Of a stretch of DNA of 64,000 nucleotides, positions 1-36,641 are shown piece by piece. The stretch spans positions 5,134 to 69,133 of the forward strand of contig NZ_DASWXW010000016.1 of assembly GCF_036405315.1 (NCBI RefSeq). Direction: 5' to 3'. The position numbers and the translations under genes are program-made. The notes under the pieces are model-generated. The model saw only the letters and a program-made list of their open reading frames with translations. It made no database searches and had not been told where the DNA came from. Positions within the stretch are counted from its first letter, which is position 1. Every line of letters begins with the position of its first letter. This stretch comes from Brevundimonas sp. (lineage in GTDB: Bacteria > Pseudomonadota > Alphaproteobacteria > Caulobacterales > Caulobacteraceae).

Positions 1-942
1 GCCGCCGTGCGCGCCTTCGCCGGCGCCGAACGCATCAACCTGGTTGTGCTGCACCCGCTGGACCGCGTCTCGCCGGTGCAGCGCAAGCAGATGACGACGG
101 TTCAGGCCGACAACGTGCTGAATCTGGCCGTGCGCGGCGACTTCGACGACTGCCAGCGTCTGGTGAAGGGTCTGCTGGCCGAGGAATCCCTGCGCGACGG
201 CCGCCGCCTGTCGTCGGTCAACTCGATCAACTGGGGCCGGCTGGCGGGCCAGATCCCCTACTATGTCTCGGCCACGGCCCAGCTGGGTCAGGCGGCGACC
301 TTCGTCGTCCCCACCGGCAATTTCGGCGACGCCTTCGCGGGCATCGCGGCGAAGAAGATGGGCTTGCCGGTCAAGGGCTTCGTCGCCGCCGTCAATCAGA
401 ACGACGCCCTGGCCCGCGCTCTGAACGAGGGCGTCTACGCCCGCCGCCCCGCCGTCGAGAGCGGCAGCGTGTCGATGGACGTGCAGGCGCCGTCCAACTT
501 CGAACGCCTGGTCTATGAGGCCTCGGGCCGCGACGCCGAGGCGACCCGCGCCGTGTTCGAGACCTTCGCCCGCGAGGGGTCCGTCACCTTGCCTGCGGAC
601 CTGCTGGCCGCCCTGCGCGCCGAGGTGTCCGGGGTCTCGATCGACGAGGCGACGACCAAGGCCGAGATCGCCCACGCCCACGCCGCCTGGGGCCGCGTCG
701 TCTGCCCGCACACCGCCGTGGCCCTGGCCGCCGCGCGCCAACTGGACCGCGCCAACGGCCCCGTCGTCGCCCTGTCGACCGCCCACCCGTCCAAGTTCGG
801 CGCCTTTGTCTCGGATGTCCTGGGCTTCGAGCCGGAACCCGCCCCCGTCATCCGCGCCCTGGGCGACCAGCCCGAGCGCCTGACCATCATCGACAACACG
901 GCCGAGGCCGCGCTGGCCGCGGTCAGGGGCTTCGCCGGCTAA
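1..942 (+). CDS. thrC: Threonine synthase, 5'-truncated by window edge
   Basis: Motifs SSVNSINWGR, VPTGNFG, SMDVQAPSNFER, CPHTAVA, STAHPSKF; frame open from base 1. Confidence 0.93.
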   Translation, partial: AAVRAFAGAERINLVVLHPLDRVSPVQRKQMTTVQADNVLNLAVRGDFDDCQRLVKGLLAEESLRDGRRLSSVNSINWGRLAGQIPYYVSATAQLGQAATFVVPTGNFGDAFAGIAAKKMGLPVKGFVAAVNQNDALARALNEGVYARRPAVESGSVSMDVQAPSNFERLVYEASGRDAEATRAVFETFAREGSVTLPADLLAALRAEVSGVSIDEATTKAEIAHAHAAWGRVVCPHTAVALAAARQLDRANGPVVALSTAHPSKFGAFVSDVLGFEPEPAPVIRALGDQPERLTIIDNTAEAALAAVRGFAG

Positions 943-1917: not shown

Positions 1918-2223
1918 TCAAAATCCCGCGCGGCGGGATCGTTGCATGGCGAACCGCCCCAGACCGGAAGCGGGCCTGCTTAATGTCCGCCAAGGATAGC
2001 GGTCGCTAGGCGGGAACTTATCGGACCACACCTTCATCCGCTTCCGCATCCAGCCTGCGAGGATGATGAAGGCGGCGGAAACCAAGGTCATGGTCGCGCA
2101 GAAAAACGCGGAGAGTTTGTCCCCATCGCGCAGGAAGGCGATGGCCAGAACGAGTGACCCCATCAGCACCAGCATGCCCACAAGCTGGGCCGCGTGGGAG
2201 ATCATCGAGTAGGTTCTGAGCAT
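1918..2223 (-). CDS. Low-GC hypothetical membrane protein (2 TM); 3' end reads through palindromic repeats
   Basis: Two hydrophobic segments; atypical codon usage; tail DRYPWRTL is encoded by repeat copy 1982-2004. Confidence 0.55.
   Translation of the reverse strand: MLRTYSMISHAAQLVGMLVLMGSLVLAIAFLRDGDKLSAFFCATMTLVSAAFIILAGWMRKRMKVWSDKFPPSDRYPWRTLSRPASGLGRFAMQRSRRAGF
1952..1975 (-). repeat. Degenerate GTCCGC/GCGGAC palindromic element
   Basis: Minus strand GCCCGC-TTCCGGTCTGGG-GCGGTT, 12-nt spacer. Confidence 0.45.
1982..2004 (-). repeat. GTCCGC/GCGGAC palindromic element
   Basis: Minus strand GACCGC-TATCCTTG-GCGGAC-ATT. Confidence 0.65.
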
Positions 2224-2227
2224 ACCG

Positions 2228-2569
2228 TCAGCTAGCTGTCTTTGGGGGCAGTTGACGGAGGTTCGCTCGGGCCTTCTGTGTTGACCAAAGCGCCAAGCGG
2301 GCGCGGTCAGGCTTGGCGCGTTCGATCATGACCGTCGCTCCCCGCTCCTGAAGAAACCGACGCAGGCGCTTGCCGTTTCGTCGCCCCCATACACCGACGT
2401 AGCAAGTGAAAAGTCCGCGCCTGTAAAAGACCGCGCCGCTGAAAGTCTTGGAGAGTTCCTTCACCCTCATGAACTTCGATAAGGCCCCACGCTCGACGAC
2501 GCAGACATGCGTATCGCCATCAGGGCTGAAATTCAGATCGCGAAATGCGTAGGCCGTCAGCGGCTTCAT
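2228..2569 (-). CDS. Low-GC hypothetical basic protein
   Basis: ORF MKPLTAYAF...PKTAS, 113 aa; stop 4 nt before next ATG; upstream extension in ORF track is repeat-derived (SDPLRTF). Confidence 0.55.
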   Translation of the reverse strand: MKPLTAYAFRDLNFSPDGDTHVCVVERGALSKFMRVKELSKTFSGAVFYRRGLFTCYVGVWGRRNGKRLRRFLQERGATVMIERAKPDRARLALWSTQKARANLRQLPPKTAS

Positions 2570-2594
2570 GGGGCCATGATTGCAAGCAAGTGCG

Positions 2595-2622
2595 AAGGTC
2601 CGCAATGGGTCCGAAAGCGGCC
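2595..2622 (-). repeat. GTCCGC/GCGGAC palindromic element
   Basis: Minus strand GGCCGC-TTTCGGACCCATT-GCGGAC-CTT. Confidence 0.7.
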
Positions 2623-2651
2623 CCTCGCCCGAACGCAAGAAGCCGCCCTCC

Positions 2652-5805: not shown

Positions 5806-5929
5806 CACTCATCAAGACCGGCTGAGGGATTAGGCCCTTTGACGCCGGGGCAACCATCGGGTTCCGCCCGAAACGGTGCCAACTCCTGCGGGGTTTTCAG
5901 GCTTGCCTGAAAATCGCGAGAGATGGGTG
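5806..5929 (+). ncRNA. SAM-I (S-box) riboswitch
   Basis: CACTCATC/GATGGGTG P1; AUCAAGA, GAGGGA, GGCCC, GGCAACC, GGUGCCAA, CCUGC core motifs in canonical order; upstream of metX. Confidence 0.88.
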
Positions 5930-6009: not shown

Positions 6010-7077
6010 ATGACCCTGGCCCTGATCGAACCCGTCGCCCCCGCCGAAGAGCCCGCCTGTCGGCCTGCGTCTGCACGCCGTCCGTCCGAGCTGCTGTCGC
6101 GCGACGGAGCCCATGACGTCGTCGTCCCGATCCCAGACGGCTTCCCGCTCGATTTCGGCGGCGCCCTGAACCAGAAACAGATCGTGGGCCGCCTGCACGG
6201 CAAGGCCGGCGCCCCCCTGATCGTCGTGGCCGGCGGCATCTCGGCCGACCGCTACGTCCACCGCACCGAGACCAAGGGCCTGGGCTGGTGGTCGGGCGCC
6301 GTGGGCGTGCGCGCCCCCATCGACCTGACCCGGTTCCGCGTCCTGGCCTTTGATTTCGCCCCGGAGTTCGGCGAGGGCGTCAAAGACGCCAAGACCCCGC
6401 TGACCATCACCACCCAGGATCAGGCGCGGCTGCTGGCCCTGCTGCTGGATCACCTCGGCGTGGACAAGGTCGCGGCCTTCATCGGCTGCTCCTACGGCGG
6501 CATGATCGCCCTGGCCTTCGGCGAGATCTTCCCCGACTGGGCCGAGCAGCTGGTGGTGGTGTCCGCCGCCCACCGCCCTCACCCCCTGGCCACGGCCTGG
6601 CGCGGCATCCAGCGCCGCATCCTGCAGCTGGGCCTGGAAACCGGCCGCGTCGATCAGGCCGTGGGTCTGGCCCGCGAGCTGGCCATGACCACCTATCGCA
6701 CCCAGGAAGAGTTCGGCGAACGCTTCGATTCCGAGGCCCCCAGCCACGCAGGGCAAGCCTATCCCGTCTGCGACTATCTGACGGCGCGCGGCCGGGCCTA
6801 CCGCGACCGCACCACGCCGTCGCGCTGGCTGACCCTGTCGGACTCCATCGACCGCCACCGGGTCGAGCCCGAGGCCATCACCGCCCCCGTCACCCTGGTC
6901 GGCTTCACCACCGACCGCCTGTGCCCCATCGACGACATGAGGGAGCTGGCCGCGCGCCTGCCCAACCTCTGGCGCTTCGAACAACACCCCTCCCTCTACG
7001 GCCACGACGCCTTCTTGAAGGAAGACGCCCTGGTCGCCGACATCCTGACTTCCGTACTAAAGGACATCGACCAATGA
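6010..7077 (+). CDS. metX: Homoserine O-acyl(succinyl)transferase, alpha/beta hydrolase
   Basis: GGISA, GCSYGG nucleophile, ARELAMTTYR, YGHDAFLKE; precedes metB. Confidence 0.88.
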   Translation: MTLALIEPVAPAEEPACRPASARRPSELLSRDGAHDVVVPIPDGFPLDFGGALNQKQIVGRLHGKAGAPLIVVAGGISADRYVHRTETKGLGWWSGAVGVRAPIDLTRFRVLAFDFAPEFGEGVKDAKTPLTITTQDQARLLALLLDHLGVDKVAAFIGCSYGGMIALAFGEIFPDWAEQLVVVSAAHRPHPLATAWRGIQRRILQLGLETGRVDQAVGLARELAMTTYRTQEEFGERFDSEAPSHAGQAYPVCDYLTARGRAYRDRTTPSRWLTLSDSIDRHRVEPEAITAPVTLVGFTTDRLCPIDDMRELAARLPNLWRFEQHPSLYGHDAFLKEDALVADILTSVLKDIDQ

Positions 7078-8252
7078 GCCGCGCCCGTCCCGCCGACCCC
7101 CGCACCATCGCCGCCCGCTCGGGCGTCGATACGGATACGGCCCACGGCGCGGTCATGCCGCCGCTCTATCTGTCGTCCAACTACTCCTTCGCCGGCTTCG
7201 ACCAGAAGCGGAAATACGACTACTCGCGCTCGGGCAATCCGACCCGCGACGTCCTGGCCGAAACCCTGGCCGAGCTGGAAGGCGGCGCCGGCGCCGTCGT
7301 CACCGCCACCGGCATGGCCGCAGTCGATCTGCCGCTGTCCCTGCTGAACCCCGGCGAGCTGCTGATCGCGCCGCACGACTGTTACGGCGGCACCCATCGC
7401 CTGCTGTGCGCCCGCGCCAGGAAGGGGCACTTCCGCGTCGCCTTCGTCGATCAGAACAACGCAGAGGCCCTGGACGCGGCCCTGGCCGACGACGCGAAGC
7501 TGGTGCTGATCGAGACCCCGTCCAACCCCCTGCTGCGGGTCGTGGACGTGGCCGATGTCTGTCGTCGCGCCCATGCCGTCGGGGCCAAGGTGGTGTGCGA
7601 CAACACCTTCCTGTCGCCGGCTCTGCAACGCCCGCTGGAGCTGGGCGCCGACATCGTCGTCCACTCGACCACCAAATACATCAACGGCCACTCCGACGTG
7701 GTCGGCGGCGCCGTGATCGCGGCGGACCCGGCCGACCACGCCGAACTGGCCTGGTGGGCCAACTGCCTGGGCGTCACCGGATCTCCGTTCGACGCCTATC
7801 AGACCCTGCGGGGCTTACGCACCCTCTTCACCCGCATCGAACGCCAGCAGGCCACCGCCGGGCTGGTCGCCGCCGTCCTGGAACAGCACCCGGCGGTCAA
7901 GGCCGTCCACTATCCGGGCCTCACGTCCCACCCTGGCCACGCCCTGGCGACGCGCCAGCAGTCAGGACCGGGCGCCATGCTCAGCTTCGAGCTGAACGGC
8001 GGCACGGACGCCGTGCGCGCCCTGATCGAGGCCCTCGACATCTTCACCCTGGCCGAGTCCCTGGGCGGGGTGGAAAGCCTGATCGCCCACCCGGCCACCA
8101 TGACCCACGCCGCCATGACGCCTGAGGCTCGGGTGACGGCGGGCATCACCGACGGCCTGATCCGCCTGTCGGTCGGACTGGAGCATCAGGACGACATCCT
8201 GGCCGACCTGGTTCAGGCGCTGGACGCCCTGGTGCTGCAACAGGCCGCCTGA
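7074..8252 (+). CDS. metB: Cystathionine gamma-synthase / O-succinylhomoserine (thiol)-lyase
   Basis: YDYSRSGNPTR, ETPSNP, DNTF, HSTTKYINGHSDV, AESLGGVESL; ATGA overlap with metX. Confidence 0.92.
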   Translation: MSRARPADPRTIAARSGVDTDTAHGAVMPPLYLSSNYSFAGFDQKRKYDYSRSGNPTRDVLAETLAELEGGAGAVVTATGMAAVDLPLSLLNPGELLIAPHDCYGGTHRLLCARARKGHFRVAFVDQNNAEALDAALADDAKLVLIETPSNPLLRVVDVADVCRRAHAVGAKVVCDNTFLSPALQRPLELGADIVVHSTTKYINGHSDVVGGAVIAADPADHAELAWWANCLGVTGSPFDAYQTLRGLRTLFTRIERQQATAGLVAAVLEQHPAVKAVHYPGLTSHPGHALATRQQSGPGAMLSFELNGGTDAVRALIEALDIFTLAESLGGVESLIAHPATMTHAAMTPEARVTAGITDGLIRLSVGLEHQDDILADLVQALDALVLQQAA

Positions 8253-22257: not shown

Positions 22258-22419
22258 ATGACCTGCGCCAACCGCATGGGCCAAGCGGCCAGACACGTCT
22301 CCGACCTCGCCCTGGGCGTCTGCGGAGCCCTGCTGATCAGCCTCGCCGTCATGACCCTCCCCAGCCCCGGCCAGGCCGCCGCCTGGTTCAACGCCCCCGC
22401 CGCCGTCACCGCTCGCTAA
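22258..22419 (+). CDS. Small single-TM protein, 53 aa (paralogue 1)
   Basis: RBS AAAGGA; MTCANRMGQAARHVSDLALGVCGALLISLAVMTLPSPGQAAAWFNAPAAVTAR; absent from ORF track. Confidence 0.65.
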   Translation: MTCANRMGQAARHVSDLALGVCGALLISLAVMTLPSPGQAAAWFNAPAAVTAR

Positions 22420-22447
22420 GCCCTCAGCTCATTTCAGGACCAGACCC

Positions 22448-22606
22448 ATGTTCAATCTCTATTCCTCGATCGTCGACCGCTTCTCGGGCTTCGCCCTCGG
22501 CCTCTGCGGCGCCCTGCTGATCACCACGGCCATCGAGGCCGTCCCCACCTTCGGCCGGGCCCAGCCCGTCGCCGTCATCGCCAGCAATGTTTCCAACACC
22601 TTCTGA
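22448..22606 (+). CDS. Small single-TM protein, 52 aa (paralogue 2)
   Basis: RBS CAGGA; MFNLYSSIVDRFSGFALGLCGALLITTAIEAVPTFGRAQPVAVIASNVSNTF. Confidence 0.65.
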   Translation: MFNLYSSIVDRFSGFALGLCGALLITTAIEAVPTFGRAQPVAVIASNVSNTF

Positions 22607-22872: not shown

Positions 22873-23490
22873 ATGACCGAATCCGAAAAGGCTGAAGGCC
22901 GCTGCGGCTGGTGCGGCACGACCGACCCGCTCTACATCGCCTATCACGACACCGAATGGGGCGTGCCCGAATACGACCCCCGCGCCCTGTGGGAGAAGCT
23001 GGTGCTGGACGGGTTTCAGGCCGGACTGGCCTGGATCACCATCCTGAGAAAGCGCGAAGGGATGCGCGAGGCCTTCCACGGCTTCGATCCCGAGATCATC
23101 GCCCGCTACGACGACGCCGACCGCGCCCGATTGCTGGCCGACCCACGCATCATCCGCTCGCGCGCCAAGATCGAGGCCGCCATCAACGGCGCCCGCCTCT
23201 GGCTGAACATGCGCGACAACGGCGAGGACTTCTCCGCCTGGCTCTGGTCTTTCGTCGATGGAAAGCCGCTGGTGAACCAGTGGAGCCATTTCCGCGAGGC
23301 CCCGACCCAGACCGCCGAAAGCCTCGCCATGGCCAAGGCCCTGAAGGCCCGCGGCTTCAAATTCTGCGGCCCGGTCATCACCTACGCCTTCATGCAGGCC
23401 GTCGGCATGGTCAACGACCACCAGACGACGTGCTTCCGGCATGGGGAGGTGGGCGGGGCGGGCGGATCAGGGCTGGCCGCCAAGGTCTGA
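22873..23490 (+). CDS. tag: DNA-3-methyladenine glycosylase I
   Basis: RCGW, YHDTEWG, LDGFQAGLAW, RSRAKI, GFKFCGP, GMVNDH..CF. Confidence 0.93.
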   Translation: MTESEKAEGRCGWCGTTDPLYIAYHDTEWGVPEYDPRALWEKLVLDGFQAGLAWITILRKREGMREAFHGFDPEIIARYDDADRARLLADPRIIRSRAKIEAAINGARLWLNMRDNGEDFSAWLWSFVDGKPLVNQWSHFREAPTQTAESLAMAKALKARGFKFCGPVITYAFMQAVGMVNDHQTTCFRHGEVGGAGGSGLAAKV

Positions 23491-23509
23491 TTTCCGGCGT
23501 GACGCTGCC

Positions 23510-23536
23510 GTCCGCTTTCGCCCCGTTGCGGACATT
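23510..23536 (+). repeat. GTCCGC/GCGGAC palindromic element
   Basis: GTCCGC-TTTCGCCCCGTT-GCGGAC-ATT. Confidence 0.75.
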
Positions 23537-23569
23537 GACTTCCTTCACTCGATGGCGAGTTCTTCCCTT

Positions 23570-23758
23570 ATGAACAAGCGCCACAAGATCATTTTAGGGA
23601 TCGGTCTCGGAGTTGTCGTCGCTGGGTTAGGAGCCACGTTGATCTTCTTCGACAAGGTTGACGCCTGTTACGACAGCGGCGGAGTGTACCTAGATGAGAT
23701 AGGGAAATGTTCGCATTCCCAAACCGAGGTAGATCGCTACCGACCGAAATCGGGCTGA
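23570..23758 (+). CDS. Low-GC small membrane protein, 62 aa, two Cys
   Basis: MNKRHK + TM + C..C; about 52% GC by hand count (99/189). Confidence 0.6.
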   Translation: MNKRHKIILGIGLGVVVAGLGATLIFFDKVDACYDSGGVYLDEIGKCSHSQTEVDRYRPKSG

Positions 23759-23767
23759 TCGGGCAGA

Positions 23768-23794
23768 GTCCGCGTCCCACCCCCAGCTGACGTT
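23768..23794 (+). repeat. GTCCGC/GCGGAC palindromic element
   Basis: GTCCGC-GTCCCACCCCCA-GCTGAC-GTT. Confidence 0.7.
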
Positions 23795-23866
23795 CAACGT
23801 GCCTGCTTAGCGCCGCCTACCCTCGACCGGCTTCCGCCCCGCGCCCGTTCATGGCACTGACGCGCG

Positions 23867-24685: not shown

Positions 24686-25726
24686 TCAGGCGGCGACGGG
24701 CAGGCTCAGTGGTTTCTGGGTCACGACGAACAGATGCTCGACGTTGCGCAGACGCCCGACCGCCCCGACCTTTTCGCCCTTCAGATTGTGGATGCCGATG
24801 CGGGCGCCGACGTAGCGGGGTCGCGGTATCTCGACCACCTGGACATGGCCGCGCGCCGACAGCATGGCCGTCAGGTCGTCACGGCTCAGATAGCCCTCGT
24901 CGTTGAAGCTGACGATCAGGTTGGGCGCCTGAAGCCGCTCGACCACGGATTGCAGCGCCGGGCCGATGCCGGGGCGGCTGTTGAACGGGCTCTTGCGGGT
25001 CTTCACGTCCACCCGCTTGTTGGCCACGCCGTAGGTCTCGGGCTTGTCCCACAGGATCAGGCTTTCCCAGCAATGGTAGTTGGCCAGATAGGAGTGCTGG
25101 TTGTAGGGCGGGTCCAGATAGACGAGATCGGCCGCGACCTGATCGGCGATCTCGACCGCGTCGTCCTGGGTGGCCTTGCACGGCCCCGCCGCCACGCCCG
25201 GCAGCAGGTCTGGCAGTCGCAGCTCCAGCGGCTTCAGCGCGCGCGGCGCCCACTGCTTCATATAGGCCATCTGCAGCCCGGCGGTGGAATCCACCCGGTC
25301 CGCCGCCTCCATCAGGGCGACCAGAACCACGGCCTTCAGCTCCGGCTCCAGCCCCATGGCCTCGATGCGGGTGCGCATGGCGTCGATGCGGGCGCCGTTG
25401 TCGGGGTGGAAGAAGCGGGCGTCCTCGCAGAAGGCCTTGGTGAACCAGCCGGCCTCGGGCGTCAGCGTCCGCAGCTCGGCCAGAACCATCTCGGCCTGGC
25501 TCGCCCAGCGTTCGCGGTCGGCCTGGACATAGGCCGTGGCCAGGGTGTGGGCGTAGGCGTTGTGGTCGTTCGACCAGACGCGAAACCCCTGTCCCTTCAG
25601 GGCGTGACCGACGCGGGCCGAACCGGAAAACAGGTCGCACACCGTCCCGCCGTCCGGCAGGGCGGCGCGCACCGCACCCGTGACATGGCCCAGAAGCGCG
25701 CGCTTTGAGCCGATGTACTTGATCAT
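24686..25726 (-). CDS. Orphan alpha-class N6-adenine DNA methyltransferase (D12/FokI-M-like)
   Basis: IKYIGSK, DLFSGS (motif I) N-terminal, YLDPPY (motif IV) C-terminal. Confidence 0.88.
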   Translation of the reverse strand: MIKYIGSKRALLGHVTGAVRAALPDGGTVCDLFSGSARVGHALKGQGFRVWSNDHNAYAHTLATAYVQADRERWASQAEMVLAELRTLTPEAGWFTKAFCEDARFFHPDNGARIDAMRTRIEAMGLEPELKAVVLVALMEAADRVDSTAGLQMAYMKQWAPRALKPLELRLPDLLPGVAAGPCKATQDDAVEIADQVAADLVYLDPPYNQHSYLANYHCWESLILWDKPETYGVANKRVDVKTRKSPFNSRPGIGPALQSVVERLQAPNLIVSFNDEGYLSRDDLTAMLSARGHVQVVEIPRPRYVGARIGIHNLKGEKVGAVGRLRNVEHLFVVTQKPLSLPVAA

Positions 25727-27326: not shown

Positions 27327-29033
27327 TTACGGCTGCACCGTCTCGCAACGCCCCGTCGCGAAGCCGGGCAGGTCGATGCATCGGCCTTCGACCTTGGGGG
27401 CGGTCACGCCCATGACGTGGGCCAGGGTCGGGGCGATGTCGAGGGTGCGGATCGGCAGGAAGCGTTCCTGCCCCAAACCTTCCGCCCCCTTGGTCCAGAA
27501 GATGATCGGCACGCGACGGTCATAGTCGAAGGGCGTGCCGTGGCCGCTGATGGCGCGGCCGACGCTGCCGCCCGGCACCACGTTCTGGGCGTAGAAGATC
27601 AGGATGTCGGGCGAACGTCCCGCCACGGCGCTGAGGCGCGCGCGCTCGCGCAGGGTCAGCATGTCGGGATTGTCCGAGGCCGGGATCGGGTCCGTCAGCA
27701 CCGCGTCGCGCGTGGCGACGAAGGCGATCTCGGGATTGGTCTTCAGCATCTCGACCGCCGCATTCGCGACCTCGGTCCGCAGCGGATCGGCCAGGGCCAC
27801 GCCGCCGCGCCCGGCCACCATCAGGCCGCTGCCGCCCTGCTGCAGCGGATTGACCTCCAGGTTGAAACGTTCCTTCAGCGCCAGATTGACCCGCGCCACC
27901 CGCTCCAGATCGGCGCGATGCGCGTGCGGATAGCCGTGGTCGTGCAGGCGCTCGACGAAGTCCGATCCGCCGTGGTCCGCCGTCAGCACGACCAGCGTCC
28001 CTTCCGGCAGCTTGTTCAGGAACAGGCCGAGGGCTGCATCCAGGCGGTGCATCTGCTCGCACATTTCCGGCCCCTGGGTGCCGAAGCTGTGGCCGATGCG
28101 GTCGGTGGCCGACAGGCTGACGCCCAGCATGTCCGTGGTCCCGCGCCGGCCCAGTTGCTGCGACTGCAGCAGGTCCGCCGCCGCCACCAGGGTCGCTTCG
28201 TCCAGGGCCGGCGAGGTGTCGAACACCGGGTTGGCCGGCGGCACGGCCGCGCGGAAGGTCTGGCCGCGAATGGTCCAGTCGCCGTCCAGCCCCTGGCAGT
28301 CGCTGAACGCCCCCGTCCAGTAGGGCGCCGGGTTCGACGCCTCGCTCATGGCGCGGAAGCGGGCGTTGAAGGCCGCCACCGGCGCCAGCCGCGCCTCGGC
28401 GCTCTGACCCGGCTCGACATAGGTGGTCAGGCCGAAGCCGTCGGTGAACCAGTAGGCCCCGTCGCCCTTGTGCCCGTTCAGGTTGATCGCGCCGCGATCC
28501 TTGCCCGAAACGGCGAAGATCCGGCTCTGCGGGTTCTTTTCCTTCAACCAGTCGGCCAGGGTCGAAACCATCAGCTGGTCGGGGCCGACCGGGCCGTTGT
28601 CGGTGTTCTTGCCGTGCGCCAGCGTGTTCTGCGGCGCGGCCAGGCAATAGACTTCCTTGCCCGTGGCCGGATCGACCCAGTCGTTGGCGAGGATGCCGGT
28701 CTCGGTCGGGTGCATCCCGGTCAGGATGGTGGAGTGGCCCGGGCAGGTCTCGGTCAGGCCGTGCGTCTGATAGCCGTTGACATGCACCAGCCCCTGATCC
28801 GCCAGAGTCTTCAGACCGCCGGTGAACCGGCTGCGATACTGGCTGAACAGATTGGCGCTGAACTGGTCCACCACGATGGTCACTACCAGCGGCGGCGCCG
28901 CACGCGCGGTCGAAGCGGCGACCGGGGCCGTCGTCGCTGCGGGCTGGGCCGCCTGCTGCGCCAGAGCCGGCAGGGACGCGCCCGACAGAAGAGCGAACGT
29001 CAGGGTGGAGGCCAGAACACGGCTGCGGATCAT
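27327..29033 (-). CDS. Secreted alkaline phosphatase family protein (PafA/PhoV type)
   Basis: Signal peptide, VVDQF, TETCPGHSTILTG, SGKDRGA, TDRIGH, LTADHG, GHGT..DYD. Confidence 0.88.
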   Translation of the reverse strand: MIRSRVLASTLTFALLSGASLPALAQQAAQPAATTAPVAASTARAAPPLVVTIVVDQFSANLFSQYRSRFTGGLKTLADQGLVHVNGYQTHGLTETCPGHSTILTGMHPTETGILANDWVDPATGKEVYCLAAPQNTLAHGKNTDNGPVGPDQLMVSTLADWLKEKNPQSRIFAVSGKDRGAINLNGHKGDGAYWFTDGFGLTTYVEPGQSAEARLAPVAAFNARFRAMSEASNPAPYWTGAFSDCQGLDGDWTIRGQTFRAAVPPANPVFDTSPALDEATLVAAADLLQSQQLGRRGTTDMLGVSLSATDRIGHSFGTQGPEMCEQMHRLDAALGLFLNKLPEGTLVVLTADHGGSDFVERLHDHGYPHAHRADLERVARVNLALKERFNLEVNPLQQGGSGLMVAGRGGVALADPLRTEVANAAVEMLKTNPEIAFVATRDAVLTDPIPASDNPDMLTLRERARLSAVAGRSPDILIFYAQNVVPGGSVGRAISGHGTPFDYDRRVPIIFWTKGAEGLGQERFLPIRTLDIAPTLAHVMGVTAPKVEGRCIDLPGFATGRCETVQP

Positions 29034-29310
29034 CTTGGACACCGGAAACACGACAGGATGAAGGGTGACTACCCCCCCAGCGTAACGGCGCCAAGACAAC
29101 GGCTCAGATGAGCGGCTCAGCCGGTTCCAGAAGCGTCGGGCCGTGACATCCGCCTTGCATGACCGGAGGCCCGGCATCACTCGCCGATCAGTTTCGCCGC
29201 GCGCGAACACTATTACCGCTTGCACCAATAGAACGCCGTTCTACAGTTTTTTGGAGCCACAATGGGAAGGGAAGCCGAAGCCCATTGCAGCCAATCAATG
29301 AGAGGCCATC

Positions 29311-29538
29311 ATGACTGACACCTGGATTTCTCGTCGCGGCCGCACCTTTGGCATGGCAGTCAGCCTGTTCGGCGTCATCGCATACATCGCCTGCCGTCTA
29401 GTATTCGCAAAATACTGGCTCGACATAGTGGCCAACGACGCCTTGGGCTGGACCATAACAGCTGCTTATGCGGCGATCGGATCCATCATTGCTGGCGCCG
29501 TGATAGTGACAGCGTCCTTCATCAGGAAACCCCGCTAG
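29311..29538 (+). CDS. Low-GC hypothetical membrane protein (2 TM)
   Basis: 75 aa, RBS GAGAGG, atypical codons. Confidence 0.55.
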   Translation: MTDTWISRRGRTFGMAVSLFGVIAYIACRLVFAKYWLDIVANDALGWTITAAYAAIGSIIAGAVIVTASFIRKPR

Positions 29539-29595
29539 ACGCGATTACCGAAGCCCCCGGAGGCTGACCGGGGGACTTCTCATCGGCGCAAAAAT

Positions 29596-29652
29596 TGGTG
29601 CGAGCGGCGGGGGTCGAACCCGCAAGACCGAGGTCGGCAGATTTTAAGTCTG
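29596..29652 (-). tRNA. 3' half of tRNA-Leu(TAA); prophage att duplicate, not a full gene
   Basis: CAGA-CTTAAAA-TCTG anticodon arm, long variable arm, GGTTCGACCCC T arm, ..GCTCGCACCA; no D arm or 5' acceptor strand upstream. Confidence 0.88.
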
Positions 29653-29708
29653 AGACGCCCTGAGCAATTTCAACACTTTGCCGGATTTGCGGCGCTGGCG
29701 CGGCGCTA

Positions 29709-30935
29709 TCAGATTATGAGCCGCTCGCTGGCCTGGGCGATGGCGTCGTCCTCTTCCTCGTCGCGCCAGAGATGGCCGTAGGTGTCCATCGTCATCTTCA
29801 GCGTGGCGTGTCCGACCAGCTCCTGAACCTTCTTCGGCTTGGGCTGCGGCGTTTGCGCCAGCCAGAGGCTGACGGCGACATGGCGCAGGACGTGGGGCTT
29901 GAACTCGGCAACCGGGCGGTTCTTGCCCTTGCTGTCGGGGAGCATCATCACCAGCCCGGCGGCGCGCATCAGCGGCATCCAGCAATCGCGGATGAAGTCC
30001 TCATAGCCCCACACGCCCTCGCCGGTCTTCGGGTTCGGGAACAGCCGGCCCGGCATCATTCGGCGCTCCCGGCGGCCGTCTACGTGCTGGAAGTGGCCGA
30101 CCGGCCCGCGCTTCAGGCGCCAGGCGCGCACGGCAAGGGCTGTCGTCTGCCCGATCGGCACGTCGCGTTGGCCCTTCTTCGTCTTCGGCGGGTCCAGTGT
30201 CCGGTGCGTCCGGTCTAGCCGCTCCTTCACGCGCAGCTTGCCGCCCGTCGTCCGAACAGCTGCGGCATCGTCTGCCATGCCAAGAGCTTCCGAGATCCGC
30301 AGCCCTCCGAACATGAGGATGCGCACCACGGCGCTGTCGCGTTCAGGGTTGGCGCTCTCGGTCGCGGCCTTCACCAATGCGGCGAGCTGATCCTTCGACG
30401 GCAAAGAGAAGGGCTCGCTGTCGGCCTTTTCCCCATCGCCCTCGACGGCGCAGGCCTGAGCCGGGTTCGCCAGCAGCCAGCCGCGGCGAGCTCCGAACCG
30501 GCACCACGTCACCAGAGAGCGCCTGATCTGGCGCGCGAGGTTGATGGAGCCGCCGCTCTGCACGACCTCGTCGAGGAAACCTTGAATGTCGGGAGACCGC
30601 AGGTTGGAGAGCCGGGTGCGTCCGATCTTGTGGTCGCGGATATGGGTGTCGAGGATCGACTGATAGCCGTCCGCCGTCCCGGTGCGTCGGGCGCCCGCCC
30701 TGACCAGGCCGTGGAAGTTCGCGATGTGGGCCTCGGCCAGCTGCGTCACTGTCATGGTGGACGACCCGCCGACCAGCCCGGCCGAAACGCTGTCGAGCCA
30801 CGCCTTGGCCTCACCCTTCAGGTCGAAGTTCTTGGACTGCCTGACGCCGTCAGGGCCAGCCCAGGTCGCGCGCCAGCTGACCTTGACGCTACCGTCCTGG
30901 CGCGGCCGGTTCTTGATCTTGCGGACGTTAGCCAT
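29709..30935 (-). CDS. Tyrosine integrase
   Basis: GLRISE (R), PKT (K), HVLRH, GH..KMTMDTYGH; catalytic residues intact. Confidence 0.93.
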   Translation of the reverse strand: MANVRKIKNRPRQDGSVKVSWRATWAGPDGVRQSKNFDLKGEAKAWLDSVSAGLVGGSSTMTVTQLAEAHIANFHGLVRAGARRTGTADGYQSILDTHIRDHKIGRTRLSNLRSPDIQGFLDEVVQSGGSINLARQIRRSLVTWCRFGARRGWLLANPAQACAVEGDGEKADSEPFSLPSKDQLAALVKAATESANPERDSAVVRILMFGGLRISEALGMADDAAAVRTTGGKLRVKERLDRTHRTLDPPKTKKGQRDVPIGQTTALAVRAWRLKRGPVGHFQHVDGRRERRMMPGRLFPNPKTGEGVWGYEDFIRDCWMPLMRAAGLVMMLPDSKGKNRPVAEFKPHVLRHVAVSLWLAQTPQPKPKKVQELVGHATLKMTMDTYGHLWRDEEEDDAIAQASERLII

Positions 30936-30989
30936 GCGAAGCCCCTGAGCGTGCCGCATACAGGCACGTCAGGCCGCCGATGTCATCCG

Positions 30990-31220
30990 TCACGCGACCC
31001 GCACATTCGGCGCTAGGGTCTCGTCAGCCTCCAGCCATGCGTCCAGCTCGTCGGGGAAGGCATAGAGCCCGATCCCGTCCCGCTTCCGGATCGGGCAGGT
31101 CCAGCCTTTCTCCCGCGCGTGGTAGACCCAGCGCTCGGGGCGGCCGAGATAGCTGGCGATGTCGGCGGCGCCCTCCAGACGGACGCGGCGGGTCGGCGTG
31201 CTGTCGTTCGCGGCGCTCAT
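30990..31220 (-). CDS. Excisionase-like winged-HTH protein
   Basis: AADIASYLG..ERWVY, PIRK, ELDAWL; adjacent to int. Confidence 0.7.
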   Translation of the reverse strand: MSAANDSTPTRRVRLEGAADIASYLGRPERWVYHAREKGWTCPIRKRDGIGLYAFPDELDAWLEADETLAPNVRVA

Positions 31221-31390
31221 CGTCCCTCTCCATCAGGGGGCGTGGTGGGGGCGCGAAGACGGGCGCGGCGCTCGGACCATTCCTGCACCAGTTCGGTCGC
31301 GGCGAGCGGCCCGTCCTCAGCCAATGTCCGCGCGAACTCACGAGCAATCGCGGCCTCCTGTTTGTCGTATAGCCTGACGACTTCGCTCAT
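31217..31390 (-). CDS. Phage hypothetical protein, 57 aa
   Basis: ATGA-coupled on both sides; MSEVVRLYDK..DGEGR. Confidence 0.6.
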   Translation of the reverse strand: MSEVVRLYDKQEAAIAREFARTLAEDGPLAATELVQEWSERRARLRAPTTPPDGEGR

Positions 31391-31587
31391 CCGCCCTGTG
31401 CCTTGGCTTTGAGAATAGGGGAGACTACGCCGCTTTCAGCGCCTTCGTTCCGTCGCCGCACGATCACCTTGTCCAGACCATCGAGGCCGAACATGCGGAT
31501 TGCCAGCGCCACGGCCTGAAGCTCAGTGATGACGGCGAGATTGTCAGGCACAGGGATGGAGCCGTCTTCGGCGGAATGTACCATCAC
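31387..31587 (-). CDS. Phage hypothetical protein
   Basis: ATGA overlaps. Confidence 0.6.
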   Translation of the reverse strand: MMVHSAEDGSIPVPDNLAVITELQAVALAIRMFGLDGLDKVIVRRRNEGAESGVVSPILKAKAQGG

Positions 31588-31844
31588 TCTCCAGCCTCCT
31601 TTGCTTGGTTAGGGGCGGATGGGAGGGGGAGCCAGTAAATGTCGTTGGCGGACGTGTAGCGATCCGCCCGGACGACACGGCCCGCCTTTTCGAGCCGCCG
31701 CATACGGCGAAGGATGTAGGGGCGGCGAATGAGCATACCGAGGCGGTCAGCAACGTGTGCCGTTCGCCCGCCGTCGCGCAGTGCGGTGACGATCTGATCG
31801 TCTGTCGGCTCCAGCCGTTCGATGAGCGCGCTATGGTCGGTCAT
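31584..31844 (-). CDS. Phage winged-HTH-like protein
   Basis: TAHVADRLG..ILRRMRRLEKAGRV; ATGA overlaps. Confidence 0.55.
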   Translation of the reverse strand: MTDHSALIERLEPTDDQIVTALRDGGRTAHVADRLGMLIRRPYILRRMRRLEKAGRVVRADRYTSANDIYWLPLPSAPNQAKEAGE

Positions 31845-31960
31845 TTCCACGCGTCCTTCTTCTTTCTTCGGCATGACGGACACAACCTCGGATGGAGGCT
31901 GTTCATGTTTGCTGCGTAGTGAAGCCCGCAAATCAGGCAGACAATCAGCCGCACGGTCAT
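31841..31960 (-). CDS. Small zinc-ribbon protein, 39 aa
   Basis: CLIC...CPSC; ATGA overlap. Confidence 0.55.
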   Translation of the reverse strand: MTVRLIVCLICGLHYAANMNSLHPRLCPSCRRKKKDAWK

Positions 31961-32298
31961 TGGTCGGCTCCCTGGTTGGCTAGCAGCGCGCGGGCATTGG
32001 TCTTGAACGACGCGAAGCCGCGCCAGTCGTCGCATTTCAGGCCCGTCGCCTTTCGCAGCAGCCCTACGGCCTCGTCGCGCTGGCGTCGGTATTCGAGCGC
32101 CTCTTTCGCAACATCGCGTCCGTAGCCACGCAGCGCCGCTATCTCGGACAGGAGGGCTTCGAGGACGTCGGCAGCACGCGGGCCATCAGGGTTGGCTAAA
32201 ACGCGGCCATAGATGCCGTGGCGGTCCCGCTTCGATGCACGCAAAGACGCCAGCAGTTCCGCATGGTCGGCTGTCTCTCGGGTGGTGGGGGCGGTCAT
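31957..32298 (-). CDS. Phage hypothetical protein
   Basis: Coupled ORF with coiled-coil segment. Confidence 0.6.
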   Translation of the reverse strand: MTAPTTRETADHAELLASLRASKRDRHGIYGRVLANPDGPRAADVLEALLSEIAALRGYGRDVAKEALEYRRQRDEAVGLLRKATGLKCDDWRGFASFKTNARALLANQGADQ

Positions 32299-32534
32299 TT
32301 ACGTGCCTCACGATCTTTGCGCTCGCCCATGCCGATCTCAACTGCGATCTTCACTCCATCGTCGGTCAGCCAGTTCCAGCCGTCCGCGCGCTGAACCAGA
32401 CCACGGTCAAAGAGGTCAGAGCGACCGGCCTTGCTGGGAACCTCGCCGTCCCATGTCGGCCCGTGCTTGAACAAGCACCACATGACTTCCCATTCTGCGC
32501 CGGTCAGCGCCTTCGGTGTTGCGATCACGCTCAT
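32295..32534 (-). CDS. Phage hypothetical protein
   Basis: GPTWDGEVPSKAGRSDL motif of small lambdoid proteins. Confidence 0.6.
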   Translation of the reverse strand: MSVIATPKALTGAEWEVMWCLFKHGPTWDGEVPSKAGRSDLFDRGLVQRADGWNWLTDDGVKIAVEIGMGERKDREARK

Positions 32535-32878
32535 TTCGCATCCCCCTTCAGGGCGTCAGGGGTGGAGAGGGGGCCGATGCACGCGCGGAACGCAGCCTTG
32601 ACTAGTTCGCGCTTGGCAGGGGTCAGCGCCAGCTTTTCGATGTTGTCGGCCATCTGGTTGATGACGTCTTGGCGGACCTCCCGCAGCTTGTCGGCGCTCG
32701 GGGCGGCTGGGTGGGGGTAGAGGGGCTGGGTGAAATGCCCCTCGCGGGCTTCCGGCTGGCGACGATGAGACAACAGATGCGATGCAAGTTCATCGCGCAG
32801 CTTCCACGGCGGGGCGCTGAGCCCGTGCTTGGCGAACAGGTCGTTGATGACCTGAAAGGCGGGGCGTTCATCGGCCAT
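32531..32878 (-). CDS. Phage modular hypothetical protein
   Basis: RBS GGAGGG; QPEAR and FTQPLYPHPAAP linker motifs. Confidence 0.6.
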   Translation of the reverse strand: MADERPAFQVINDLFAKHGLSAPPWKLRDELASHLLSHRRQPEAREGHFTQPLYPHPAAPSADKLREVRQDVINQMADNIEKLALTPAKRELVKAAFRACIGPLSTPDALKGDAK

Positions 32879-32880
32879 CG

Positions 32881-33105
32881 TCAGGCCCTCCATTTCAGGT
32901 GATTGCGGGCGTAAACGACCCAGAGCGCGACGTTCATGGGGAGCAGACCCCAAGTCGCTGACGTGACGATCCAGCCAAGCCAAAGCGCCTGATTGCCGAG
33001 GCCGATGGCCCATGCGGAGCGATGCTTGTTGCCCGCCAGCACGGTCATCCAGATCGTGATCGCGGACAGGAGCCAGGGCAGATAGGTGATGATCTCCGCT
33101 TTCAT
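32881..33105 (-). CDS. 3-TM PnuC/SemiSWEET-like membrane protein
   Basis: WLLSAITIWM..AWAIGLGNQALW..WGLLPMN..YARNHLKW. Confidence 0.55.
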   Translation of the reverse strand: MKAEIITYLPWLLSAITIWMTVLAGNKHRSAWAIGLGNQALWLGWIVTSATWGLLPMNVALWVVYARNHLKWRA

Positions 33106-34460
33106 GAGCGGGCTTCCGGCGCAGACGAACGGGCGCGGAGGGCGAGAACCTTGATCAGGTCCGAGCGAAACTCGACTGCCGGGTCGAGGCACCATTCGCC
33201 GCCATAGACCTGCTCAACCTGCGCGCCCGCCGCGACGGCGGCCACGCGAACTTCCGCATCTCGGCCTTCACGCTCCCCCGCCCCCTCGGCTGGGGCTTCA
33301 TGGCTCGCGGCAACCATGGCGGCGAATATCGCCTCTACAGCCCCAGCCCCCACAACTTCGGAGCCGTCCATGTATGTGTCGGTAAAGTCTCGAAGCGCTC
33401 CTTCTCCCGCTTCGACCATGGCTTCCGTGATAGGCGCGGCTTCCGCGTTGAGAGCGTTGAACTTGGCAAGCTCTCGGTCGTACCGTTTCCAGTGCCCCGC
33501 CGCCTGCGTCTCAGCGTCAGACCGGGCTGTCGGGTCCGCCGCGCTTCGTGCGATCCGATCTTGCCCCTCAGCGGCCTCTCTGATGGCCTCTACGCGGTTG
33601 TATTCGTCTCGCCATGCCGGTGAGGCTGGGGCTTCATGGCGGGGGGTGAGAGCTGGCGGCATGACTGATAGGTCAATCAGCTTGGTCCAGTCCGGCGTGT
33701 GGATGTTGCAGGACCATCGGCCACATGGTTTGTCCTGCTGGTCGCCGTTGACGATCGATCCGCCAAGCCCATACGCGATGTGCTGCGCCAGTTCGGACGC
33801 TCCAACTGCCTCAGCCACCCAAGGTGCGGCGATCAGGTCCAGGTCGCGCTCCATCGTGCCATGAACGCCGATGGCGTAGCCGACTTCCCGCGCCAGTTCG
33901 CGGATGCGGTCGATGTCAGGAAGGCCGGGCCATTCCCACCCGTCAGCGGGCTTCGTCAGCGCGGTCCCGCATTTCTGGCAGGGATCGACGGCGCGCGGCG
34001 AGTTACAGGTCATGCAGGCCCATTCCACCCCCTCCCGCTCTGGGGCTTCCGGGGATAGGGCGGCGAGGCCAAACTCGCGGATCAGCGCCTTTGCCAGCCG
34101 CTCTTTCGAGCCCGTTAGAGATGTGGCGTAGAAATCCTCGAACACGATCCGCTCGACGCGATTCTGCACGTCCTCCCCACCCGCCAGCGATGACGGGGCG
34201 GGGGCGGCTTGAGCCTTCGCCAGTTCGATCGACAGCCAGCGGATGCGCTCCTTGGCAGCGGTCTGCCAGACGATCAGGTCGAGGTCGTTCCGATCCGCCA
34301 TGAAGACGCGGTTCGCCAGTGCGAAGTCGGTCAGGTCGGGCCGCGAACGGGGCTGTCCGTCATACTGGCGGACGAACTCGGCCCATGCGGCGTCATCATC
34401 GCAATGGCCGGGGCCGCGAACCGGAACGACGACGCTCTGGGTGGTTGGGGTGACGGTCAT
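33102..34460 (-). CDS. Mosaic Ead/Ea22-like multi-module phage protein
   Basis: Modules joined by PEAP/HEAPA/PEAR linkers; CxxC..CxxC; GYAIGVHGT..DLD. Confidence 0.65.
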   Translation of the reverse strand: MTVTPTTQSVVVPVRGPGHCDDDAAWAEFVRQYDGQPRSRPDLTDFALANRVFMADRNDLDLIVWQTAAKERIRWLSIELAKAQAAPAPSSLAGGEDVQNRVERIVFEDFYATSLTGSKERLAKALIREFGLAALSPEAPEREGVEWACMTCNSPRAVDPCQKCGTALTKPADGWEWPGLPDIDRIRELAREVGYAIGVHGTMERDLDLIAAPWVAEAVGASELAQHIAYGLGGSIVNGDQQDKPCGRWSCNIHTPDWTKLIDLSVMPPALTPRHEAPASPAWRDEYNRVEAIREAAEGQDRIARSAADPTARSDAETQAAGHWKRYDRELAKFNALNAEAAPITEAMVEAGEGALRDFTDTYMDGSEVVGAGAVEAIFAAMVAASHEAPAEGAGEREGRDAEVRVAAVAAGAQVEQVYGGEWCLDPAVEFRSDLIKVLALRARSSAPEARS

Positions 34461-34783
34461 GCGCGGTTCTCCCGGCGATAGATGTCTGTCTCGGCGGCTT
34501 CGGCCATCAGGTAGGCGTCGTGGTCGCCCGTGTCGAACCTGGCCAGGATCGCCTCTTCCGTGGCCTCGTCGCCCGTCGAGACGGGATGCCCGTCGATCTT
34601 CTCGACGCGGATGTCCTCGATCTCCGCATCCTCGGCTGGCAGTCCGCCATGAGCGTAGGCGGGGGGCGTTTCGGCCCGGCCCTGGCGGACGACATAGCTG
34701 ATCGTCGCGTCCAGCTCGCAGTAGTCCGCCTCGCCATCCGTCCCGAACGACAGGCAGGTGCTGTAGCTATATCGGCGGCTCAT
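34457..34783 (-). CDS. Acidic phage hypothetical protein
   Basis: ATGA overlaps. Confidence 0.65.
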   Translation of the reverse strand: MSRRYSYSTCLSFGTDGEADYCELDATISYVVRQGRAETPPAYAHGGLPAEDAEIEDIRVEKIDGHPVSTGDEATEEAILARFDTGDHDAYLMAEAAETDIYRRENRA

Positions 34784-35007
34784 GCCTCACCCCCACGGCG
34801 GGAGGCTTGGCGGATTCTAGCCTCGCGCTGGGCGTCATGCCCGGCCGGATCGGCGGCGAAGTAGAAGCTTCTCGCTCTGGCGTAGAGTGCGAACAGCTTG
34901 TCCGACTGAGCTTCGGGGATAGTTCCGGTGAAGTCGTCGACCCAATCGATGAAATCAACAATCAAGCGAACCGAATCCGCCTCAAGCACTTCCGTTGGGG
35001 TGGTCAT
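34780..35007 (-). CDS. Phage hypothetical protein
   Basis: ATGA overlaps. Confidence 0.6.
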   Translation of the reverse strand: MTTPTEVLEADSVRLIVDFIDWVDDFTGTIPEAQSDKLFALYARARSFYFAADPAGHDAQREARIRQASRRGGEA

Positions 35008-35480: not shown

Positions 35481-35821
35481 GCGGCGGCCCTGTCGATGGT
35501 GACCGTGCAGCTCTGCTTCAGGAGGCTGTTGCGGGTGCGCTCGCCCTCTGGGGTGAGCAGGACCGTGAAAGGCCGGGCGGGGATGCCGCGCTCAGGCCAT
35601 GCGGCGGCCTGCTGGACAGCGAGGAGATAGCCCTTGGCGATCAGGCGCAGGACCAGCTCTTCGGGGAAGGTCAGGCGGTCGTCATAGCCGCCCATGACCT
35701 CGGGCAGCAGGCGGAAAGGCACGCCTGCGAAGGCGCAGCGGTTCAACTGCTGGAGCGGCCTGACGGCGCGCAGTAGGTCGGCCTCGTCGGCCAGCAGTCG
35801 GCGGGGATGCTCGTGGATCAT
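35477..35821 (-). CDS. Phage hypothetical protein
   Basis: ATGA overlaps. Confidence 0.6.
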   Translation of the reverse strand: MIHEHPRRLLADEADLLRAVRPLQQLNRCAFAGVPFRLLPEVMGGYDDRLTFPEELVLRLIAKGYLLAVQQAAAWPERGIPARPFTVLLTPEGERTRNSLLKQSCTVTIDRAAA

Positions 35822-36611: not shown

Positions 36612-36641
36612 GAACGTCTCCCCCTTTGATGTTGAGAGATG

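Follow-up and report, generated by a model that had tools for sequence, protein, structure and literature searches.

We analysed a 64-kb stretch of DNA (hereafter the window) from a Brevundimonas close to B. bullata (thrB protein 96% identical), in which the interval between thrB and a DUF5996 gene holds two small open reading frames (ORFs), ORF1 and ORF2, together with short repeated sites, and in which a third small ORF, at 23.5 kb between tag and rnhB, is bordered by sites of the same kind. Taken as a whole, these sites are best explained as boundary repeats of small mobile gene cassettes, a reading that we consider rather probable from the comparisons given below. The thrB-DUF5996 interval differs in composition from its surroundings (GC 0.56-0.64 over 1901-2700 vs. 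0.68-0.77 on both flanks), and the genes and sites found there, with the repeat units and their A and B types as described further on, are the following:

7-942, plus strand: thrC.
1890-946, minus strand: the DUF5996 gene.
1952..1975, minus strand: distal partial unit D2, GCCCGC-TTCCGGTCTGGG-GCGGTT, 9 nt after D1.
1982..2004, minus strand: distal unit D1, A type, GACCGC-TATCCTTG-GCGGAC-ATT, which closes the ORF2 cassette and has a 4-nt deletion in its spacer.
2223-1918, minus strand: ORF2, 101 aa, with two membrane helices.
2224..2238, minus strand: decayed half A at the ORF1/ORF2 junction, CAGCTA-GCTGAC-GGT, with GCTGAC-GGT at 2232-2224.
2569-2228, minus strand: ORF1, 113 aa.
2570..2597, minus strand: cassette-specific 28-nt putative promoter spacer, with a -10-like AATCAT at 2581-2576 and no Shine-Dalgarno sequence.
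2622-2595, minus strand: proximal unit, B type, GGCCGC-TTTCGGACCCATT-GCGGAC-CTT, 33.1 bits with one gap.
2623..2647, minus strand: hairpin GGCGGCTTCTTGC..GCGAGGGGCCGC, the stem of the thrB intrinsic terminator, directly after the thrB stop and in the place that half A occupies in arrays.
3614-2652, minus strand: thrB, stop codon at 2652-2654.
5359-3617, minus strand: an aspartokinase-homoserine dehydrogenase fusion, one 580-aa ORF directly 5' of thrB.

A preliminary description of this DNA had pointed out four repeated sequences here, and all four stand on the minus strand where it placed them (2622-2595, 2004-1982, 1975-1952 and 2232-2224). The unit to which they belong is GTCCGC-TYYCSACCCRTW-GCGGAC, in which two inverted arms of 6 bp enclose a 12-nt spacer that is conserved and asymmetric; when array loci were searched with the arms alone, the spacer was 12 nt long in 143 of 199 matches and read TYYCSACCCRTW. 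This conserved and asymmetric spacer gives the unit a direction, and it rules out a hairpin with a free, variable loop, as which the spacer had been described. Including its borders, the unit spans ~30 bp, (AAT)GTCCGC-TYYCSACCCRTW-GCGGAC(ATT), and is often extended to CTAATGTCCGC...GCGGACATTAG. Between neighbouring genes, the usual form is a double unit A+B, in which unit A (GTCCGC-TWTCCACCCYYAG-GCGAC, i.e., a 13-nt spacer and right arm GCGAC) is followed after 1-9 nt by the start of unit B (GTCKGC-TYCCGACCCATT-GCGGAC). Array ends and solitary cassettes carry a unit, nine nucleotides and a partial unit (GTCCGCTTTCGG.., a left arm without a proper right arm), an arrangement (unit-N9-partial unit) that closes the arrays in contigs L083, L088, L090, L125, L175 and L227.

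Under the earlier, loose definition the sites are not special, as the pattern G.CCGC-N6-20-GCGG.C occurs 21 times in the window, and a loose arm-and-spacer expression run over 80 thrB loci returned noise only. By contrast, a weight matrix for the full unit, trained on copies from unrelated metagenome contigs, scored 37.9 bits at 23507-23536, 19.1 bits at 23765-23794 and 33.1 bits at 2595-2625 on the minus strand (one 1-nt gap allowed), vs. maxima of 12-16 bits in shuffled windows with the same matrix (15.6 for the gapped scoring). Searching the window with the unit itself gave one match (23507-23536) vs. 0.01 expected. The proximal site of the thrB locus and the two sites at 23.5 kb belong to a single repeat family, their scores far exceeding chance. 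Too decayed to be scored alone, the two distal sites and the remnant at the ORF1/ORF2 junction were validated by comparison. No description of the repeat turned up in the literature, searched by topic and by sequence string, which does not prove that none exists.

The thrB terminator consists of a 12-bp stem (with G-U pairs) followed by TTTCG, is kept in nine species, and is missed by a simple terminator scan because its T-tract is short. Hairpin and T-tract occur genus-wide, including in species without any unit, and the B. diminuta group has the terminator by itself (GGCGGC..GCCGCC-TTTTC), with a clearer tract and no unit behind it. Two readings of the proximal hairpin, as a plain terminator and later as a decayed half A, gave way in this genus-wide comparison to a terminator with a unit fused to it. 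The GGCCGC described earlier as the proximal left arm is thus present, but it does not stand as an arm of the unit, since GGCCGC and TTTCG belong to the thrB terminator, as its descending stem and T-tract. Across six taxa with different cassettes, this left part is kept (GGCCGC/GGCCGT-TTTCGAYCC) and the right arm differs by cassette (ATTGCGGAC, ATAGCGGAC, GTTGCAGAC, GTGCCGGGC, ACCGTCGAT and GTAGTGGAT). The proximal site is a hybrid, with GGCCGC and TTTCG from the terminator, and ACCC-ATT-GCGGAC from the cassette.

At the distal end, relatives have an A-type unit at the position of D1, in the same unit-N9-partial unit arrangement, and a near-identical metagenome allele reads GACCGC-TAACCATCCTTG-GCGGAC, with four additional bases (TGGT, X7 allele) that yield a 12-nt spacer and a TAA stop. 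In D2, the left arm and spacer are cassette-derived, and the right arm GCGGTTC is common to locus L008 despite different cassettes and left arms. D1-N9-D2 is a regular composite cassette end, and the serial insertion and deletion earlier suggested for the stacked distal copies are not needed, although small deletions did damage sites in this strain. These comprise the four nucleotides lost in D1 and, at the ORF1/ORF2 junction, a deletion of ~10 nt together with the loss of the B unit: the remnant there corresponds to CAGCTAACCACCCTTAGCGGAC minus ~10 nt, with the following B unit missing. An RNA-seq contig has the intact junction form, CAGCTAACCACCCTTAGCGGA, behind an ORF1 homologue, and an intact half A also occurs in contigs L082 and L083.

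The damage to D1 also accounts for the length of ORF2. Relatives of ORF2 in the representative library are 74-77 aa long and end in ..FPPSVR, this VR-stop being GTC CGC TAA, i.e., the left arm of the unit. The window ORF2 runs to 101 aa because D1 lost four bases (GAC CGC TAT rather than GTC CGC TAA), and ORF2 stops at 75 aa in the metagenome allele with the intact D1 spacer. Read-through ORFs such as the window ORF2 are artefacts of a decayed site.

Between strains, the interval from thrB to DUF5996 is hypervariable, with differing genes on either strand and a length of 588-2441 bp in the 11 closest relatives; among 80 Brevundimonas thrB loci, none holds ORF1 or ORF2. Towards thrB, homology to the window stops at 2654-2595, and towards DUF5996 at ~1950, i.e., at or within the sites; Blast homology next to thrB ends at 2612-2607, inside the proximal spacer. 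Other cassettes lie between the same kinds of site in L004, L005, L008, L009 and L017. In Brevundimonas-rich metagenomes, read depth was 200-860 over the thrB flank and 45-330 over the DUF5996 flank vs. 0-15 over 1946-2642. The same hot spot shows other structures as well: an AraC-type regulator sits between the thrB stop and a terminator-like hairpin in L004 (6961-8780, with an additional small reverse-strand ORF) and L009 (1912-3190), displacing hairpin and unit from thrB by 1.8 and 1.3 kb, respectively, from which it follows that the hot spot takes insertions by more than one route. L008 carries a palindromic GTCATCCTCCGGCGAGCGCAGCGAGACCGGGGGATCC element (7000-7230), and in L063 (7050-7330) tandem AGTCCGAAAYGTCCGAA motifs flank a long inverted repeat (GTCATCCTAGGCCTTGTGCCTAGGAT..).

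The second locus, between tag and rnhB, has the architecture that the preliminary description had seen there and is in addition an insertion polymorphism. Its features are:

23507..23536, plus strand: B-type unit, GTCCGC-TTTCGCCCCGTT-GCGGAC-ATT(GAC), 17 nt after the tag stop, 37.9 bits.
23570..23758, plus strand: cassette ORF of 62 aa (68 aa if the start is at 23552), with an N-terminal hydrophobic helix and no family match.
23765..23794, plus strand: A-type unit, GTCCGC-GTCCCACCCCCA-GCTGAC-GTT, which closes the cassette, 19.1 bits.
~23801-23817 and 23825-23844, plus strand: partial units following the A-type unit.

Here, 23768-23791 and the sequence behind it again form the unit-N9-partial unit arrangement. 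Most related strains lack ~23450-23846, metagenome depth falls from hundreds to 1900 over the tag and rnhB flanks to 0-6 over 23479-23819, and several metagenome contigs jump from ~23444-23471 to 23831-23847, i.e., represent empty alleles; in one of these, tag and rnhB overlap as ATGA (read from the joint 23444/AGAA/23847). One metagenome has a different, unit-bordered cassette between tag and rnhB (loose ends at 23492 and 23830), and the window cassette recurs with 94% identity in an RNA-seq contig of another organism, over 23512-23782 only, the two sequences being unrelated beyond. Both cassette intervals are rare alleles in metagenomes, where empty and alternative alleles exist, and that the units bound variable cassettes can be regarded, with high confidence, as shown. 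As for tag itself, its last 13 codons (..GGAGGSGLAAKV and the stop; 23453-23490, plus strand) lie in the inserted segment, and in empty alleles Tag ends in ..HGEVHGTDAR with a TGA that overlaps the rnhB ATG; with the 3' end of tag inside the insert, the cassette therefore replaced the Tag C-terminus and uncoupled tag from rnhB.

Beyond the window, ORF1 homologues are bracketed by the same units in four unrelated contigs. Long contigs with ORF1 relatives (L081-L083) hold runs of 6-10 small ORFs without Pfam matches, almost all spacers containing a double unit and the units sharing one strand. A 16-mer core of the unit matches >120 metagenome contigs, many single matches of which must be due to chance in so large a collection; at least two extended copies occur in 45 loci, on the same strand in 36 of 42 loci and with a median spacing of 507 bp. 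Where the same cassette is found in different contigs, the likeness begins at one B unit and stops at the following one. The ORFs are oriented with the units in ~49 and against them in ~20 of 69 intervals. Copies are otherwise rare, as ~1 Mb around thrB of 80 species holds a handful, all in the variable interval, the 64-kb window holds three full ones, and a plasmid search with the double unit gave three weak matches. Three IMG/VR contigs filed as viral (L204, L206 and L227) have three units each at intervals like those of cassette arrays; rather than phage genes, they probably represent islets of a cellular genome or DNA adjoining a prophage.

The first proposal for this DNA, that cassettes move between repeated sites, is hence supported by both of the checks suggested with it. 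Across strains, the thrB-DUF5996 interval is variable (none of the 80 Brevundimonas loci sharing its ORFs), and elsewhere the ORFs always come with flanking sites: ORF1 in its four unrelated contigs, the ORF2 family with its terminal ..VR-stop, and the 23.5-kb cassette from unit to unit. The repeat-derived peptides predicted with it are likewise seen at ORF termini.

The cargo is largely unfamiliar. Neither Pfam, NCBIfam nor PADLOC gave a match for ORF1, ORF2 or the 23.5-kb ORF, and ~80% of 53 putative cassette proteins lack a Pfam domain, many having signal, lipoprotein or membrane features. The ORF1 product, a basic alpha/beta protein, is conserved (30 homologues, 59-96% identity), and most of its relatives end in ..KVR; its AlphaFold2 model (predicted local distance difference test score 83) found no significant match in the PDB, the best being an eIF1/SUI1-like fold (template-modelling score 0.48, E 0.04).

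Besides closing the upstream gene, the unit seems to take part in starting the next one. Of 108 unique copies, 25 have the ATG of a frame of at least 50 codons 26-29 nt 3' of GCGGAC, 15 of them at exactly 27 nt, other offsets being represented by ~1 copy each. The leaders are mutually unrelated and mostly without a Shine-Dalgarno sequence; aligned on this ATG, they have A at -11 (0.72) and T at -7 (0.76); given the 27-nt offset and these two positions, TTGCGG falls at -35 to -30 and the predicted mRNA is leaderless. It is therefore likely from the geometry that the unit supplies the -35 box of a sigma-70-type promoter, with a predicted leaderless transcript from the A of the ATG. The window ORF1 fits this geometry, with TTGCGG (2605-2600), 17-18 nt, AATCAT at -12 to -7, and an ATG (2569) 28 nt after GCGGAC, the A of which would be its transcription start. 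ORF2, having lost its B unit, must be read from the ORF1 transcript. At 23.5 kb, the ATG lies 36 nt after GCGGAC, an offset of 36 being a minor peak, and the TTGACT just after the 23507 unit may be the -35 box. In Caulobacter, leaderless mRNAs make up 375 coding sequences (9.6%) and are translated as well as others (PMC4117421).

This geometry also agrees with the leading rival explanation, that the unit is a promoter/operator only, i.e., a -35 region and a palindrome for a dimeric regulator centred near -39.5 that would control a regulon of small and mostly exported proteins, the genes themselves moving by horizontal transfer and homologous recombination in the flanks. It would agree with the ATG offset and the A(-11) and T(-7) preferences, with inverted 6-11-bp arms about two helical turns apart, with the signal, lipoprotein or membrane features of many cassette proteins, and with the lack of a linked recombinase at most loci. 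However, it leaves without explanation the A unit (no ORF follows it at the distance expected of a promoter), the stop codons within the left arm, the cassette homology that ends exactly at units, the hybrid proximal and distal sites, and the partial units at array ends and unit halves enriched around a recombinase gene (see below). We consider it unlikely.

In the mobile-cassette reading, one cassette would begin with the right arm of a B unit and continue through ~27 nt, an ORF and an A unit into the next B, of which it includes left arm and spacer. The unit ends the ORF before it, whose stop codon is seen in or just ahead of the left arm, and would donate a -35 box to a cassette that brings the -10 box. 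Cassettes would enter and leave by reciprocal site-specific recombination, with the crossover, as comparative anatomy suggests, inside the spacer, and a circular cassette carrying A-N-B could recombine with a chromosomal unit or a look-alike. At thrB, the look-alike would be the descending stem and T-tract of the terminator, and the product would be the observed pair of hybrid sites; a reciprocal crossover in the spacer would predict hybrid sites there and A+B between the ORFs of an array. In this strain, two cassettes (ORF1 and ORF2) lie between thrB and DUF5996 and one between tag and rnhB, and small deletions later damaged three of their sites. Considered by itself, site-specific recombination at the units has, in our estimate, slightly better than an even chance of being correct.

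The weakest step is the enzyme, probably a tyrosine recombinase acting in trans; since the genes adjoining the arrays are mostly housekeeping genes, the enzyme would have to be supplied from elsewhere. The candidate is a Xer-like protein of ~200 aa with a catalytic domain only. Its gene in contig L083 (208 aa, Phage_integrase) lies at the array end in the opposite direction, bracketed by inverted unit-N9-partial unit arrangements, and its product has no N-terminal core-binding domain and is nearest to Xer proteins, below the family cut-offs. Homologues with 59-68% identity occur on plasmids of Bosea, Methylobacterium, Azospirillum, Roseomonas, Sinorhizobium and others, several of them preceded by GTCCGCT.. 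arms and followed, 40-70 nt behind the stop codon, by ..GACCCnTnGCGGAC. Within 300 nt on either side of nine such genes (L083 and eight plasmid homologues), the right part of the unit occurs at 0.93/kb vs. a background of 0.017/kb, and the left part at 2.8/kb vs. 0.27/kb, ratios that are rough because the background comes from other genomes. No relative was found in the other array loci examined, and none by sequence among solved structures. That the 208-aa L083-type recombinase is the enzyme acting on the units is a tentative proposal, with the odds somewhat against it. In L088 (370-700), two unit-N9-partial unit ends face each other ~45 nt apart, and the whole looks like the L083 recombinase module minus its gene, i.e., an empty form or one resembling a miniature inverted-repeat transposable element.

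Several observations weigh against the mobile-cassette reading or parts of it. As to recombination, no excised circle, no empty/filled pair in one lineage and no recombination junction was observed directly, and the junction of the empty tag-rnhB allele shows no clear unit. L081 and L082 share the whole B unit 5' of ORF1, which fits a crossover at the A/B junction better than one inside B, and cassette ORFs oppose the units in ~20 of 69 intervals; some thrB-locus cassettes of relatives (e.g., L008 and L009) likewise read on the strand opposite to their units. As to the enzyme, the window has no homologue of the L083 recombinase, a Phage_integrase gene is nearby in only 2 of 42 array loci, and the wider family of the candidate is common on plasmids of Firmicutes, where the units are not expected. 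As to the promoter, TTGCGG agrees with TTGACA at three of six positions, a scan with the E. coli consensus calls no promoter at these sites, only about a quarter of the copies obey the 27-nt rule, and an RNA-seq contig runs through a unit, so that either read-through transcription exists or the run contains DNA. In public RNA data, related sequence was present in assembled contigs of two RNA runs only, and no run with raw reads contained these cassettes.

Another explanation is that the units are selfish palindromes, similar to repetitive extragenic palindromes and bacterial interspersed mosaic elements (REP/BIME), spread by a REP-associated tyrosine transposase (RAYT, Y1 HUH type) and amassed in flexible islets without moving genes. 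The units are indeed short, imperfect, intergenic palindromes, often paired and near stop codons, but they are sparse (the three full copies of the 64-kb window) and restricted to variable islets, they are direct where REPIN pairs are inverted, and they combine a conserved asymmetric spacer with the absence of a GTAG head. Folded as single-stranded DNA, the sites of the window give no better structures than shuffled sequences (z -0.4 to -2.3), pairing being limited to the outer arms of 6-11 bp, and no Y1 transposase is among the 25 most frequent families in 88 array-flanking ORFs, single-member families not all being listed. We regard this explanation as improbable, more so than a pure promoter/operator. 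Finally, that the sites are chance GC-rich inverted hexamers and the thrB terminator beside ordinary strain-specific genes has next to no probability left, as, despite the 21 loose-pattern occurrences and a proximal left arm that truly is terminator stem, the scores lie far above those of shuffles and one common sequence of 22-30 nt stands at the edges of unrelated cassettes in dozens of contigs independent of each other, which already refutes it.

Elsewhere in the window, thrB starts 3 nt after the stop of the aspartokinase-homoserine dehydrogenase fusion gene, the fusion being kept in 80 of 80 Brevundimonas loci, and an S-adenosylmethionine (SAM) riboswitch (RF00162, 77 bits; 5806-5929, plus strand) stands divergent from this operon, ahead of the next plus-strand sequence. 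The riboswitch was the only hit of an Rfam scan of the window at gathering thresholds, which gave no match at the repeat sites. A 346-aa ORF converging on rnhB (24686-25726, minus strand), which starts with MIKYIGSKR and contains DPPYN, resembles Dam-type N6-adenine DNA methyltransferases. Two adjacent small ORFs 3' of an XRE-like regulator ORF (22259-22420 and 22449-22606, plus strand) have alike hydrophobic cores (LGVCGALLISLAV and LGLCGALLITTAI) and may be a duplicated small-peptide pair. From ~29000 to 38000, GC is 0.61-0.65, below the surroundings, and a weak tyrosine-recombinase-like match is found at 37134-37442 (minus strand; E 0.06 to the L083 recombinase); an integrated element without relation to the cassettes may be present there.

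Were the mobile-cassette reading true, the origin of the tiny strain-specific islets at gene ends in Caulobacterales and relatives would be explained, one short sequence would serve as gene end, promoter half and recombination site at once, and a very small recombinase with a ~30-bp site would be a possible tool. For annotation, the termini ..VR-stop, MSAFDP.. and VRFRPxADI are encoded by the repeat. Even if the promoter role alone holds, the unit would be a clear, portable -35 module for leaderless genes.

Among known systems, integrons come closest. They share arrays of compact, mostly ORFan single-gene cassettes with one composite repeat each, into which the ORFs run, the occurrence of one cassette in different arrays, solitary cassettes at secondary sites, and presence/absence between strains. 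Their attC site is built as R''(RYYYAAC)-L''...L'-R'(GTTRRRY) over 57-141 nt and forms a long imperfect hairpin with extrahelical bases; beside the array stands an IntI-type integrase with its extra IntI domain, together with attI and Pc. In contrast, neither the unit nor the double unit has R''/L''-L'/R' boxes or a long bulged hairpin, and the unit looks like a double-stranded core of lox/dif type whose spacer is conserved. The present cassettes also appear to carry their own promoter, unlike the promoter-less cassettes of integrons, their ORF orientation is not uniform, and no integron integrase was found linked to the arrays (no IntI profile was run), the candidate being the 208-aa catalytic-domain-only recombinase. 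Of the analogy to attC drawn in the preliminary description, the cassette-like ORFs that run into the site are retained; a literal attC is not, for want of R/L boxes, of a long imperfect hairpin and of a linked integron integrase, and with promoters that the cassettes seem to carry themselves. Integrons have been reported absent from Alphaproteobacteria (PMC9668308), and if the units are recombination sites, they would represent a second, independently built solution to the function of integrons in a large class reported to be free of them (PMC9668308). It is possible, although we would not yet put it at even odds, that Alphaproteobacteria own an integron-like gene-capture system with a lox/dif-like double-stranded site, a minimal catalytic-domain-only tyrosine recombinase in trans, insertion at gene ends (including terminators that mimic a half-site), a promoter rebuilt at the junction, and leaderless translation.

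Besides integrons, the nearest analogue in logic is the dif modules of Acinetobacter plasmids (also IMEX), small modules between short tyrosine-recombinase-type sites that are shuffled among replicons with no recombinase gene inside (PMC6449649, PMC13141974). The unit may be read as 12-6-12, like the 11-6-11 of dif with its XerC and XerD arms; however, dif sites are inverse and on plasmids, whereas the present units are direct (36 of 42 multi-copy loci) and chromosomal. In sequence, the unit is not known to resemble dif, and the window does not contain the dif of its host. REP/BIME with RAYT, of which hundreds of copies are scattered over core intergenic DNA, have in common with the units that short palindromic intergenic repeats lie near gene ends, sometimes paired, but the present units are few, restricted to variable islets, direct, endowed with an asymmetric conserved spacer and likely to have a promoter role. 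Outside classical integrons, the rAID arrays of Bacteroidales resemble integrons in that small genes are lined up with conserved repeats between them, and a tyrosine recombinase heads each array; the present system differs from them in phylum, repeat and recombinase.

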